64,000 bases of DNA from Sedimentisphaerales bacterium. GTDB taxonomy: Bacteria; Planctomycetota; Phycisphaerae; Sedimentisphaerales; UBA12454. The stretch spans positions 654,477 to 718,476 of the forward strand of contig JBEKRK010000001.1 in the NCBI GenBank assembly GCA_049518795.1, in the 5' to 3' direction. This document shows, piece after piece, positions 2,114 through 51,973 of the stretch. The position numbers and the translations under genes were made by a program. The notes under the pieces are model-generated. The model saw nothing but the letters and a program-made list of their open reading frames with translations, had not been told where the DNA came from and ran no database searches. Positions within the stretch are counted from its first letter, which is position 1. Each line of letters opens with the position of its first letter.

Positions 2114-5100
2114 ATGCCCAAAAGAACAGATATCCACAAAATAATGATAATAGGCTCCGGTCCTATAGTAATAGGCCAGGCTTGTGAATTTGACTATTCC
2201 GGCGCCCAGGCCTGCAAGGCCCTGAAAAAAGAAGGTTTCGAGGTCGTGCTGGTCAACAGCAATCCTGCAACTATTATGACCGACCCGGAACTGGCCGACC
2301 GCACCTATATCGAGCCGATTACTCCGGAAATGGTTGAAAAAATCATTAAAAAAGAAAAGCCGGACTGCCTCCTGCCGACACTCGGCGGACAAACCGGACT
2401 TAATACCGCTGTCGCACTTGCGGAAAGCGGCGTCCTGAAAAAATATAATGTCAAACTTATCGGCGCTGATTTGGCCACGATAAAAAAGGCTGAGGAACGC
2501 GACAGATTCAAGAAAATCATTCTCGATATCGGCCTGAAAGTGCCGAAAAGCGGCTACGCCCACAACTGGGAAGAAGCTCAAAAAATTGTCGAGCAGGTCG
2601 GTTTTCCCGCGATTATCCGCCCTTCTTATACATTAGGCGGAACAGGCGGAAACGTCGCTTATAACGCTGAAGAATACAAGGAATTCATATGTTGGGGATT
2701 GAATCTGAGTCCAAAAAGACAGGTGTTGGTTGAAGAATCGGTCCTTGGCTGGAAAGAATATGAACTGGAAGTGATGCGCGACAAAAAAGACAACGTTGTG
2801 ATTGTCTGCTCGATAGAAAATCTTGACCCGATGGGAATCCATACCGGCGACAGCATAACAGTGGCACCTGCTCAGACGCTCACCGACAAGGAATACCAGA
2901 CGATGCGCGATGCGGCGCTGAAAATTATGAGGGCCATCGGCGTCGAAACAGGCGGCTCGAATATCCAGTTTGCCGTTAATCCCGAAACCGGCAAAATGTG
3001 TGTAATCGAAATGAATCCGCGAGTTTCGAGAAGCTCGGCACTTGCCTCAAAGGCTACCGGTTTCCCGATTGCAAAAATCGCCTCGCTGCTGGCCGTAGGT
3101 TTCTCCCTCGATGAAATACCAAACGACATAACCAAAAGGACGCCTGCCTGCTTTGAGCCTACAATCGACTACTGTGTAGTTAAATGGCCAAGATTCACCT
3201 TCGAAAAATTTCCGGCAACAAAACCGGAACTGACTATCCAGATGAAAAGCGTCGGCGAAGCAATGGCAATCGGAAGAACATTTAAGGAGGCATTCCAGAA
3301 GGCAATCCGCTCGCTTGAAATAAACAGATATTCGCTTGATAGAAAACATATCGACTCAACAATCGACAACGACCGGCTCAAACAATTGCTGCGGACCAAC
3401 CGCTGGGACAAAATCTGGTATGTCGCCGAGGCTCTCAGAAGAAAACTGCCGGTGAGTGAAATTTATGAGCTTACAAAAATCGACCCCTGGTTTTTGAACA
3501 ACATAGACCAGATTGTCCAGTTCGAGGACAAAATAAGCATTAAAAATCTCAAACAAGCCAAAAAATTAGGCTTCAGCGATAAATATATAGCGTCAAAATT
3601 GAATATTACCGAGCCGCAGCTTAGAAAACAGCGGGTTACAGATAGAATTTCCGCCGTTTATAAGATTGTCGATACCTGCGGCGCAGAATTTGAGGCAAAT
3701 ACGCCTTATTTGTATTCGACTTATGAAGACCAGTGCGAGGCAAACCCGACAAAGAGAAAAAAAGTCATAATTCTCGGCGGCGGGCCAAACCGAATCGGGC
3801 AGGGAATCGAATTCGACTACTGCTGCTGCCATGCGGCATTTGCACTGAAAGAAATCGGTATCGAATCCATAATGGTCAACTGCAACCCCGAAACGGTAAG
3901 CACGGATTACGACACATCAGACAGACTTTATTTTGAGCCTTTGACTTATGAAGACGTGATGAACATTGTCGAAAAAGAAAAGCCCGACGGCATTATCGTT
4001 CAGTTCGGAGGCCAAACGCCGCTGAAACTTTCAAACGCCCTTTCAAAAGCCGGCGTGAAAATCATCGGCACAAGTCCCGACAGCATCGACGCCGCCGAGG
4101 ACAGAAAACGGTTTAACAAAATAGTCGAAAAATTAAAGCTCAATCAGCCGCCGAGCGGAACAGCTATGAATTATGAGCAGACAGTCAAAATCGCAAAGAA
4201 ATTAGGCTATCCTCTGCTTATACGGCCATCGTTCGTATTGGGCGGAAGAGCGATGCAAATAGTTTATGACGAAACAGAATTGAAAAGCTGCGTCGAAAAC
4301 GCAATAGCCGTTTCGGAGCAGCATCCGATACTCATCGACAAATTCCTCGACGACGCAATGGAACTTGACGTTGACGCAATAAGCGACGGCAAAATTGTCG
4401 TTATCGGCGGAGTTATGGAACATATCGAGGAGGCGGGTATCCATTCGGGCGACAGCGCCTGCTCTCTGCCGCCGTTTTCGTTAAGCCCCGCCTTAATCAA
4501 GGAAATAAAACGGCAGACTAAAATGCTCGCACTGGAACTGAATGTGATAGGCTTGATGAATGTCCAGTTCGCTGTAAAAGACGGCCAGATTTATATACTC
4601 GAAGTCAATCCGCGAGCTTCAAGAACAGTGCCGTTTGTCAGCAAGGCAATCGGCGTGCCGCTGGCCAAGCTGGCCGCGAAGGTTATGGCAGGAAAAACAC
4701 TTAAAGAACTCGGATTCACAGAAGAGGTGCATCGCAGTTACTTTTCCGTTAAGGAAGCGGTATTTCCATTCCTGAAATTCCCCGGCTGCGATACGCTGCT
4801 TGGGCCTGAAATGCTATCGACCGGCGAAGTAATGGGACTGTCAGATGATTTCGGTATCGCTTACGCGAAATCACAAATTGCCGCGGGCAATTCTCTGCCG
4901 ACAAACGGAAATGTTTTTATCAGCGTTAAAGACGCTGATAAGCCAAAGGCTGTTCAAATAGCCAAAAAACTTCACCAGATGGGATTTAAACTCCTCGCTA
5001 CAAAGGGAACCTGTATCGAGTTAATTAAGAACAACGTGCCTTCTGAATTCGTATTGAAAATGGCCGAAGGCAGACCGCACATAGTAGATTTAATTATAAA

Positions 5101-5299
5101 TAATCAGATTGCATTGATTATAAATACTACAATCGGCAAACAAACTATTAAAGATTCGTTTGCGATAAGAAGAACCGCTCTTGACCGCAACATGCCTTAT
5201 ACCACGACAATCAGGGGCGCAGCGGCGGTTACAAAAGCAATCGAATCGCTGAAACAGAAAAAAACTGAAGTTAAGCCAATACAATTGTATTACGGATAA
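2114..5299 (+). CDS. carB: carbamoyl-phosphate synthase large subunit
   Basis: 1061 aa with duplicated ATP-grasp halves ([21 protein letters not shown] and [21 protein letters not shown]) and a C-terminal MGS-like domain. Confidence 0.97.
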
Positions 5300-5309
5300 G
5301 GAAATATGA

Positions 5310-5420
5310 ATCCCGCACCTTCTAAATATTCAATTCGGAGGTATGGGATGGTCCTTAAGAATTTAAAGATTTACATAAAAACACATAAAAATTAAAAATG
5401 AATTAAAGAAGGTGCGGGAT
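5310..5420. repeat. inverted-repeat cassette A (111 nt, 14 bp perfect arms) between carB and carA
   Basis: 5310-5323 atcccgcaccttct is the exact reverse complement of 5407-5420 agaaggtgcgggat. Confidence 0.9.
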
Positions 5421-6549
5421 GAAAGGCATATTACTACTCGAAGATGGAACCTGTTTTAAAGGCTGCGGATTCGGAGCCGAAGGCAAAAAGTGCGGCGAAG
5501 TCGTCTTTAATACCGCTATGACCGGCTATCAGGAAATCCTTACAGACCCTTCCTATCACGAACAGATTGTAACTATGACCTATCCTTTAATAGGAAACTA
5601 CGGCACAAATCTGCTCGATGTTGAATCCAATAAACCTTTCCTGAGCGGTTTTGTTGTAAAGGAAAACTGCAATTTTCCAAGCAACTGGAGAAACGACTTA
5701 TCGCTTGATGAATATCTTAAAAAATATAATATCCCCGCTATTGAGGACATCGACACCAGAAAATTGGTTATGCTCCTGCGTCAAACCGGTGCGATGAGAG
5801 GGATTATCTGCACAGATGGAACAAGTATCAAAGAGCTGAAAGGCGAACTTGATAAATACCCCGGCCTTGTTGACAGAGACATTGTGAAAAACGTCTGCAC
5901 AAAAAAGAGCTATATTTGGGACAAACCCGTCGAAAATGAATTCGGCCAGGCTGTCCGACCACAGGCTAAATATAACGTTATAGCCTTTGATTACGGCATA
6001 AAGCAGAATATACTGCGGCTTTTAGTTTCGCACGGCTGTAAAGTTACAGTTGTTCCGCCGCAGACGACCGCTGAGGAAATACTTAAGCAAAAACCCGACG
6101 GCGTATTTTTGAGCAACGGCCCCGGCGACCCCGGTCCTATAAGTTATGCAATCGAAACGATACACAGACTGCTCGGCAAAGTGCCGATATTCGGGATTTG
6201 CCTGGGACATCAGCTTTTGGGTCTTGCAATCGGCGGCAAAAGTTTCAAACTAAAATTCGGCCATCACGGCGCAAACCATCCAGTCAAGAATCTTATTACC
6301 GAGAAAATCGAAATTACCAGTCAGAACCACGGCTTTTGCATCGACCCGGATTCGATTTTAGATAAAGACGTGCAGATTACACATATAAATCTCAATGACA
6401 ACACACTGGAAGGTTTCCGCTGCAAAAATGCCCCTGCTTTTGCCGTTCAATATCACCCCGAAGCATCGCCCGGCCCGCACGATTCTAACTACCTGTTCGA
6501 CGAATTTATCGAACTGATGAATCCCGTTAGAAATCACCTATTGAGATAA
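5419..6549 (+). CDS. carA: carbamoyl-phosphate synthase small (glutaminase) subunit
   Basis: 376 aa. Class-I glutamine amidotransferase motif GICLGHQLL, plus HGANHPV and YHPEASPGPHD. Confidence 0.95.
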   Translation: MKGILLLEDGTCFKGCGFGAEGKKCGEVVFNTAMTGYQEILTDPSYHEQIVTMTYPLIGNYGTNLLDVESNKPFLSGFVVKENCNFPSNWRNDLSLDEYLKKYNIPAIEDIDTRKLVMLLRQTGAMRGIICTDGTSIKELKGELDKYPGLVDRDIVKNVCTKKSYIWDKPVENEFGQAVRPQAKYNVIAFDYGIKQNILRLLVSHGCKVTVVPPQTTAEEILKQKPDGVFLSNGPGDPGPISYAIETIHRLLGKVPIFGICLGHQLLGLAIGGKSFKLKFGHHGANHPVKNLITEKIEITSQNHGFCIDPDSILDKDVQITHINLNDNTLEGFRCKNAPAFAVQYHPEASPGPHDSNYLFDEFIELMNPVRNHLLR

Positions 6550-6620
6550 AATTTAAGGGATAGCTTCTTTTCGAAATATTGTTGCAAAAGGGTTATAATT
6601 GGAAAGATTTCTAACGGGAT
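6521..6620. repeat. inverted-repeat cassette B (100 nt, 15 bp perfect arms) spanning the carA 3' end
   Basis: 6521-6535 atcccgttagaaatc is the exact reverse complement of 6606-6620 gatttctaacgggat. Confidence 0.9.
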
Positions 6621-51496: not shown

Positions 51497-51973
51497 TTAT
51501 ACCCGTCTTATTAGATCCTTCATTTCTCTTCTTATCTTATTCAATTTATCTTGAAGTTCGTGATGCTTTTCAAACTTGCCTCTTGTGCCATTACCCTTTG
51601 GTCCGGCTATCCTCAAGATAACAGTTTCTATATCTTTGCTATATCGGTGCTTATCTATTACAAAAAAACTAACCTTATCCCAACGATTTTTGTGCTTATC
51701 CTTTGTATGCCAATCAACTCTACCTAATAAGTTCTGGGCAATACCAACATAATACAATTTTTTGCCTTTGTATAAAGCATAAATTCCGGAGCTATCCCCT
51801 ATTACTTCTTTATATCGTGGTAAAAGGAGCTCAAAACCTTTCCTGTCTTTTTTCTCAAGATACCCTTTTACCAAGGCGCCTTTACAACTCTGCTTGAATA
51901 TTTTTCGCTTTGTTTTCTTTCTTTTAAAACCGCTCATTTTACGCATAATGTTTTTCCTATATTTGCCTAACAT
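51497..51973 (-). CDS. GIY-YIG nuclease family protein with a basic N-terminal extension
   Basis: GIYALYKGKKLYYVGIAQNLLGRV gives GIY-x9-YVG plus the conserved Arg; downstream Glu in DIETVIL. Its stop is 15 nt upstream of the next gene's start. Confidence 0.7.
   Translation of the reverse strand: MLGKYRKNIMRKMSGFKRKKTKRKIFKQSCKGALVKGYLEKKDRKGFELLLPRYKEVIGDSSGIYALYKGKKLYYVGIAQNLLGRVDWHTKDKHKNRWDKVSFFVIDKHRYSKDIETVILRIAGPKGNGTRGKFEKHHELQDKLNKIRREMKDLIRRV

Follow-up and report, generated by a model that had tools for sequence, protein, structure and literature searches.

What is the inverted-repeat insert that separates the genes for the two subunits of carbamoyl-phosphate synthase in a Sedimentisphaerales bacterium (assembly GCA_049518795.1), and does it serve the pathway to which these genes belong? 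We analysed a stretch of 64,000 nucleotides of contig JBEKRK010000001.1 (positions 654,477 to 718,476; hereafter the window), in which carB, encoding the large subunit (2114-5299, + strand, stop codon TAA at 5297-5299; NCBIfam NF003671, E = 0), is followed by carA, encoding the small subunit (5419-6549, + strand; NCBIfam TIGR01368, 2.7e-152). Both identities are those of NCBIfam equivalogs, and carA is intact (376 aa), with a start codon that is rebuilt by the insert. The first-pass annotation of this DNA had pointed out that carB-carA is the reverse of the usual carAB; of 30 loci that we inspected throughout the order Sedimentisphaerales, 26 show this arrangement. The same annotation had read the insert as a built-in regulator for the pyrimidine/arginine pathway. 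The interpretation that we favour, and consider likely, is a different one: 5311-5419 is a gene-less transposable element of the miniature inverted-repeat type (MITE), derived from a mini element that is bounded by inverted repeats, occupies start codons and carries an open reading frame (ORF) for a GIY-YIG protein, and the translational relay that it may have installed at carA would be a by-product of the family.

The insert comprises 109 bp and can be assigned to the MITE subfamily A described below by its ends, its copies and its target duplication; all of its parts are given here on the + strand. The left terminal inverted repeat, TCCCGCACCTTCT (5311-5323), and the right one, AGAAGGTGCGGGA (5407-5419), are perfect over 13 bp, or over 14 bp when the A/T overlap is counted (ATCCCGCACCTTCT at 5310-5323 and AGAAGGTGCGGGAT at 5407-5420). 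The arms are separated by 83 nt, and chance alone would give about 0.03 such repeat pairs over the full length of the window. Two copies of ATGAA flank the insert: the upstream one (5306-5310) holds the original start codon (5306-5308) and the left target-site duplication TGAA (5307-5310), and the second one (5419-5423) joins the last A of the right repeat, which is the A of the rebuilt carA ATG, to the right duplication (5420-5423). The native Shine-Dalgarno (SD) sequence AAGGA of the original carA start (5298-5302), a motif also present at the empty sites of relatives, now serves a 'leader' ORF of 29 codons and a TAA stop (5306-5395, stop at 5393-5395; MNPAPSKYSIRRYGMVLKNLKIYIKTHKN). The ATG of this leader lies 6 nt after the carB stop, its codons 2-6 lie on the 5' arm, it holds two adjacent Arg codons, and its stop is found 11 nt ahead of the 3' arm and 23 nt ahead of the carA ATG. 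The 3' arm covers the carA AUG together with an SD-like GAAGGTG (5408-5414), of which the GAAGG lies 6 nt from the ATG; the stretch AAAGAAGGTG differs from the ideal AAAGGAGGTG in only one of 10 positions. The anti-SD CACCUCCUU is present in the gene for 16S rRNA, the 3' end of which reads GATCACCTCCTTTCT. The first-pass annotation had described the two ATGAA copies, the 29-codon ORF that reads from the second ATG (5306) and the original SD through the 5' arm, and the 3' arm that spans the carA ribosome site; a re-check of the sequence agreed with this description and with every coordinate given for it.

Copies elsewhere identify the insert as one member of a family. Inverted pairs of the end TCCCGCACCTTCT, spaced at 107-112 bp, occur eight times in the genome, and a broader scan recovered about 42 elements with ends that start with (T/C)CCCG and with matching 4-bp flanks. 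These flanks read TGAA in 27 elements, and CGCA, TACA, CCAG, TTAA, TAAA and TCAA are among the others; since they vary between copies, they represent a true 4-bp target-site duplication and not a part of the element. The family thus shows what characterizes MITEs: a target duplication that depends on the site (TGAA here, other matched flanks elsewhere) and a small, dispersed, multicopy body without an intact gene. Two main subfamilies were distinguished: A, with the ends TCCCGCACCTTCT, to which the copy at the carA start belongs, and B, with the ends TCCCGTTAGACC or TCCCGTTAGAAA, which includes two further cassettes (B and C) of the first-pass annotation. The subfamily A pattern was found in 18 of the 25 genomes of the same taxonomic family (up to 29 matches per genome) and in only 2 of the 175 other genomes of the order, each time with one mismatch. 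The interior of the insert at the carA start has diverged, the best full-length match elsewhere being 78% identical.

Several variants were recorded beside these subfamilies. A third subfamily consists of 63-65-bp hairpins with the ends CCCCGCACCTAT/ATAGGTGCGGGA and TCAA/TTGA duplications (e.g., in this genome, G000, C1:431614-431676, C2:664859-664922 and C5:56628-56691), and hairpins of 46-47 bp with A-type ends occur as well (e.g. C1:42542 and C2:149351 in G000). Two stop-free MITE copies, G000:C2:602856-602920 and G000:C3:267452-267546, have a length that together with the duplication is a multiple of three; one of them forms a 23-aa in-frame insert in an ORF and the other a 33-aa N-terminal extension of a 487-aa protein. 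Composite A-type elements, in which a MITE or a solo end is nested in another and relic ORFs run through both, were found at L075 (G003:C26, 237 bp) and at L124 and L121 (G001). A B2-type MITE with the ends TCCCGTTAGAAA and a TGAA duplication lies at an internal ATGAA within the 3' end of carA itself (6522-6619; G000:C1:660998-661095), so that carA has family members at both of its ends.

Relatives preserve the site in its empty state. Three genomes of the genus (G001, G003 and G004) and many of the taxonomic family have a spacer of 15-17 nt, TAAGGAAATAAAGTGAAAGGC, that lacks an insert between carB and carA, which bears out the proposal of the first-pass annotation that a tightly coupled junction had been split. 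Its reconstruction of the empty site holds in part: removal of 5311-5423 does leave TAAGGAAATATGAAAGGC, and the junction of the relatives is indeed tight, but their real empty site is close to this product and not identical, as it has a GTG start and three more bases. At the upstream junction (5297-5310), which reads TAAGGAAATATGAA here and TAAGGAAATAAAGTGAA at the empty sites of relatives, the three bases AAG are missing and the start codon is ATG instead of GTG, a change that may predate or postdate the insertion; as a result of the missing AAG no more than 3 nt separate the native SD from the ATG of the leader. The two same-genus genomes that are closest by CarA, G002 (locus L022) and G005 (locus L023), carry a MITE of a different subfamily, with the ends TCCCGTTAGAATC, at the very same TGAA, which implies that the carA start has been struck at least two times independently within the genus. 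Their upstream copy still reads GTGAA and their downstream copy ATGAA, so that a GTG start becomes an ATG through the element. The xthA site is likewise filled in this genome and empty in four same-genus genomes. The insert is neither genus-wide nor conserved at the carA junction, and other copies of it exist, which excludes two findings that would have spoken against a MITE.

The family has a marked bias in where and how it inserts. The TGAA-flanked copies are preceded by an A in 26 of the 27 cases and by a G in one, and 21 of them occupy start-like sites, defined by a downstream ORF of at least 80 aa and fewer than 30 open codons upstream, compared with 9.7% of the 9017 ATGAA sites in the genome (binomial P = 9e-17). 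The host genes with a family copy on the start codon, about 20 unrelated genes in this genome, include rplM, xthA, surE and a gene encoding a Xaa-Pro peptidase. Once oriented along the host gene, the A-type copies agree without exception in their internal polarity, and so do the B1 copies.

The origin of the leader ORF becomes apparent from longer, putatively autonomous elements with the same ends, of 268, 301 and 342 bp, whose sole content is a GIY-YIG ORF of 91-99 aa. The 268-bp element with B ends (C1:105311-105578) holds a 91-aa ORF (PF01541, E = 2.7e-13) that starts at the original ATG of the host gene and stops at the TGA of the rebuilt A|TGAA. In the 342-bp A-type element (C1:227518-227859) a leader of 11 codons overlaps, by ATGA, a 99-aa nuclease ORF (C1:227557-227856; PF01541, E = 2.4e-15), and in the 301-bp A-type copy at locus L063 of G024 a 96-aa nuclease ORF runs from the retained upstream GTGAA. 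Most full-length relatives use the start codon of the host gene for the nuclease ORF, with a stop that coincides with the rebuilt ATGA or adjoins it. More than 500 homologues of the nuclease exist, in metagenome-assembled genomes labelled Phycisphaerae, Sedimentisphaerales, Planctomycetes and Omnitrophota, and most are 91 aa long among the 120 listed; in a set of 27 homologue sequences most start with MNPVRP and end with GLTG, both ends being encoded by the inverted repeats. The MITEs are in-frame internal deletions of such ORFs, as in a 109-bp copy of G001 that reads MNPAPSKYSIYHVYLLKSRKNNRITKGLEKIEWKEGAG up to its stop. In intact 109-bp relatives the ORF reads from MNPAPSKYSIYHVYLLKSRK to KEGAG and a stop, through to the ATGA, and the ORF of the insert at the carA start, beginning with MNPAPSKYSIRRYGMVLKNLK, has diverged strongly from this and acquired premature stops. 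Judged by its sequence, the leader ORF is a decayed relic of the GIY-YIG nuclease ORF of the element. Its Arg-Arg pair is a trait of the lineage, as the motif RR(Y/C) recurs in the MITE leaders at other genes. No larger element with these ends was found to carry any gene besides the GIY-YIG ORF, and a search for a conventional transposase partner (an element of 0.4-8 kb with the same ends and a matching duplication) returned only two separate MITEs that share a TTCA flank.

Small GIY-YIG genes were also seen in other settings. One (G000:C2:722060-722248) lies just 3' of a tRNA gene, is flanked on both sides by directly repeated tRNA 3'-end sequence of about 37 bp (GGGGTTCGAATCCCCTTGGGGCTATTTGATTTTTTTA), and represents a different, tRNA-targeting kind of GIY-YIG insertion; another (C1:375817-376032) lies between two tRNA genes. 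Within the window, a weak PF01541 match (21.8 bits, below the cut-off) falls in a 159-aa open frame on the minus strand (51629-51787; G000:C1:706105-706263).

What the insert would do to carA was addressed by structure prediction. The RNA from 5290 to 5440, for which the first-pass annotation had suggested folding, gave a structure of -33.3 kcal/mol (z = -3.75 with respect to shuffles); for the pairing of the two arms, -25.9 kcal/mol is predicted. To open the carA ribosome site (-14 to +3) would take a predicted 12.7 kcal/mol in the sequence as found. The figure falls to 3.8 once the 5' arm is occupied (modelled by keeping 5300-5330 single-stranded, as a ribosome translating the leader would) and is likewise 3.8 for the empty site as reconstructed; the ribosome site of the leader itself would open at 1.2 kcal/mol. 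Averaged over 23 MITE copies the corresponding values are 16.4, 7.6 and 6.0 kcal/mol. By prediction the locus therefore has the layout of RNA-unfolding coupling, namely a stem that hides the downstream ribosome site and an upstream ORF that crosses the stem, and a translational relay at carA is plausible from these models. Of the coupling or attenuation device proposed in the first-pass annotation, the predicted burial of the carA start and its relief by occupancy of the 5' arm stand, and the role as a regulator dedicated to pyrimidine and arginine does not. With only 6 nt between the carB stop and the leader ATG, the old coupling of carB to carA may plausibly be relayed from carB via the leader to carA. 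An Rfam search over 5000-5800 returned no family; its single sub-threshold hit, a plant miRNA hairpin (23.9 bits against a gathering score of 85 bits), was rejected. No terminator-like site was detected in 5200-5500, and a promoter scan gave one weak promoter-like site within the element, at chance level, and none above chance.

Whether the relay ORF is retained was assessed in 52 distinct A-type MITEs from this genome and its relatives. The length preserves the frame into the ATGA in 33 of the 52 (P = 8.5e-6 with respect to one third), and the frame is open up to the ATGA in 20, compared with 0 and 1 in the other two frames and with 5.5% for a random interior. Among the B1 copies of this genome, 8 of 13 are open. 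A neutral-drift simulation of the 115-bp class expected 1.36 open ORFs, and 5 of the 6 copies are open (P about 0.001); the simulations of the 109-bp and 112-bp classes were discarded because the majority consensus itself contained stops, owing to the mixture of lineages. The relay peptides differ widely, which suggests that it is the translation of the relay ORF that matters rather than its product.

Several observations weigh against our interpretation. The enrichment at start codons could stem from selection after insertion rather than from targeting, and the openness of the relic ORFs could in part be a legacy of a real ORF from which they descend recently, instead of selection; copies in related genomes are moreover not independent, which bears on the statistics of frame and openness. 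The A copies have leaders of unconserved length (8-40 codons). At carA in particular, the relic ORF belongs to the truncated class, in which the stop precedes the host ATG and the ATGA-overlap relay of intact copies is lost, and the short distance from the native SD may weaken translation of the leader. Finally, GIY-YIG enzymes are not known to act as DNA transposases.

In the alternative that survives best the insertion is merely tolerated and no relay operates: carA would be translated directly from the SD that the element brings, when the stem breathes or when the kinetics of transcription and translation keep it open, and the relic ORF would be irrelevant. The good match and spacing of the SD-like sequence in the right repeat favour this alternative, the leader lengths vary widely, with 32 of the 52 A-type copies stopping 14-86 nt before the host ATG, and the 83-nt loop means that the stem can form only once the whole element has been transcribed. 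Set against this are the predicted strength of the pairing, which raises the opening cost of the ribosome site by about 9 kcal/mol at carA and by a mean of about 10 across copies, the frame-preserving lengths and the excess of fully open relic ORFs in the family, and the fact that every copy retains an upstream start codon that sends ribosomes through the 5' arm. We regard translation without a relay as unlikely.

Far less can be said for a device that evolved in the host for this pathway, i.e. a leader-peptide/hairpin attenuator or a coupling switch that tunes carA to the supply of pyrimidines or arginine. It would account for a hairpin that buries the carA SD and AUG, for a leader ORF that crosses the 5' arm and for the two adjacent Arg codons. 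An attenuator would be expected to be conserved at the orthologous locus and to come with alternative terminator and antiterminator structures or with pathway-specific codons; instead the junction lacks the insert in three genomes of the same genus and in the majority of those of the family, the interior shows no conservation, and no terminator, antiterminator, Rfam family or promoter above chance was found. The same structure sits on some 20 unrelated genes, and arginine sensing through the Arg-Arg codons was rejected given that their motif recurs in the leaders of such genes. With a leader that descends from a nuclease ORF, these observations contradict the pyrimidine/arginine regulator of the first-pass annotation and make any pathway-specific device very improbable. 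Least credible of all is an element for mRNA processing or stability, in which the hairpin, as a substrate of a double-strand-specific RNase or as a 3' stabiliser, would uncouple the two genes at the level of their transcripts, in the manner reported for certain Correia and REP elements. The perfect 14-bp stem predicted in the mRNA speaks for it, but such a stem is short for RNase III, and the start-codon position and frame retention of the family need no such role.

How does a start-codon-occupying MITE with a GIY-YIG parent compare with systems that have been described? The Correia/NEMIS elements of Neisseria, ERIC and the RPE of Rickettsia are bacterial MITEs (review PMC10969869) and resemble the present family in that they measure about 100-150 bp, lack genes, end in inverted repeats, duplicate their target site, are present in many copies and fold into hairpins as RNA; some of them make in-frame fusions or alter the expression of neighbours. 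Here, unlike in these MITEs, the putative autonomous partner encodes a 91-99-aa GIY-YIG nuclease and not a DDE transposase, insertion is orientation-specific, and the copies are found nearly always exactly on (A/G)TGAA start codons, which are rebuilt with an SD; of MITEs at start codons the review says nothing.

Among systems described so far, Ssn comes closest, the single-strand-specific GIY-YIG nucleases with their NTS/SRM hairpin repeats (Chenal et al. 2025, PMC11893778), the layout of which resembles an insertion sequence according to its own authors. Shared features are the stand-alone GIY-YIG protein of about 94 aa (the 91-aa and 99-aa proteins described above likewise consist of a single GIY-YIG domain), the repeats on both sides that are dispersed through the genome, and the NTS core TCATTCCCGCG...CGCGGGAAT, which resembles TTCA|TCCCGCACC...GGTGCGGGA of the element. 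In contrast to Ssn, where each repeat forms its own hairpin, the two ends pair across the element, and the element has a 4-bp target duplication and occupies start codons. The published SRM pattern, HGTCWYN(0-2)YYVSBRHN(0-5)WNVSBRGN(0-2)RNCYNB, had no match on either strand of the insert at the carA start or of the two full elements, and its 13 matches genome-wide equal the level in shuffled sequence; as the pattern does not match, we do not file the elements as Ssn members. By sequence, the nearest solved structures are UPF0213/YhbQ-like GIY-YIG proteins, PDB 1zg2 (BH0048, E = 1.5e-6) and 1ywl (EF2693, E = 2e-3), which have the same size and a single domain but for which neither bounding inverted repeats nor mobility is known.

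Coupling by RNA unfolding has precedents in rpmI-rplT, in genes VII-IX of phage f1 and in MS2 coat-lysis (review PMC12548453). There too, translation of an upstream ORF, which is predicted here, melts a stem that hides the downstream ribosome site, and the ATGA overlap of the intact family members is the classic -4 spacing. What differs is that a mobile element installs the arrangement ready-made and that the upstream ORF is the element's own (relic) gene. A search of full-text literature retrieved no description of GIY-YIG MITEs, of MITEs that target start codons or of elements of this kind.

Taken together, a start-codon-occupying MITE would work as follows. The family inserts one-way into (A/G)TGAA and duplicates the TGAA; as the element ends in ...GGGA, the downstream junction regenerates ATGAA and with it the host start codon, to which the right repeat brings its SD-like AAAGAAGGTG at near-optimal spacing. 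The old start codon, with the host SD, from then on opens the ORF of the element, which is the nuclease in full copies and the decayed 29-codon relic here. In the carB-carA mRNA the repeats would pair and bury the new ribosome site of carA, until ribosomes coming from carB, or recruited by the native SD, pass over the 5' arm as they translate the relic ORF and open the stem, so that carA can be initiated at the element-borne SD, perhaps aided by re-initiation across the 23-nt gap. We infer that such a relay comes with the element generically, as a by-product or a feature that aids tolerance, and is not a sensor of pyrimidines or arginine, and that the GIY-YIG nuclease is what mobilises the family. 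A bolder combination of these ideas, which we offer tentatively as possible, is that the 91-99-aa GIY-YIG protein mobilises the smallest self-contained bacterial transposon, one that recognises start codons, as (A/G)TGAA, in one orientation, and that its MITEs are selected in the host for a translated relay ORF by which the inverted-repeat stem is unfolded; the element would then borrow the promoter, SD and ATG of the host and return the ribosomes via its own SD and ATGA.

At face value, the finding at carA is a transposon insertion and not a metabolic regulator. It is an unusual one, with inverted-repeat ends that encode the first and last codons of a nuclease, rebuild the start codon of the host and bring an SD; with start codon and SD restored, the element can occupy essential genes without killing them. 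For annotation this means that gene callers will misplace starts or call spurious ORFs of 20-40 codons at such sites. If the nuclease does move the element, prokaryotic DNA transposons would gain a new enzymatic class, and a biological role would be found for relatives of the Ssn-type single-stranded DNA nucleases. If the relay operates, it would be a natural, portable cassette for translational coupling, and if the combined reading is true, dozens of housekeeping genes, carA, rplM, xthA and surE among them, would be translated through a coupling device that was installed by a parasite.

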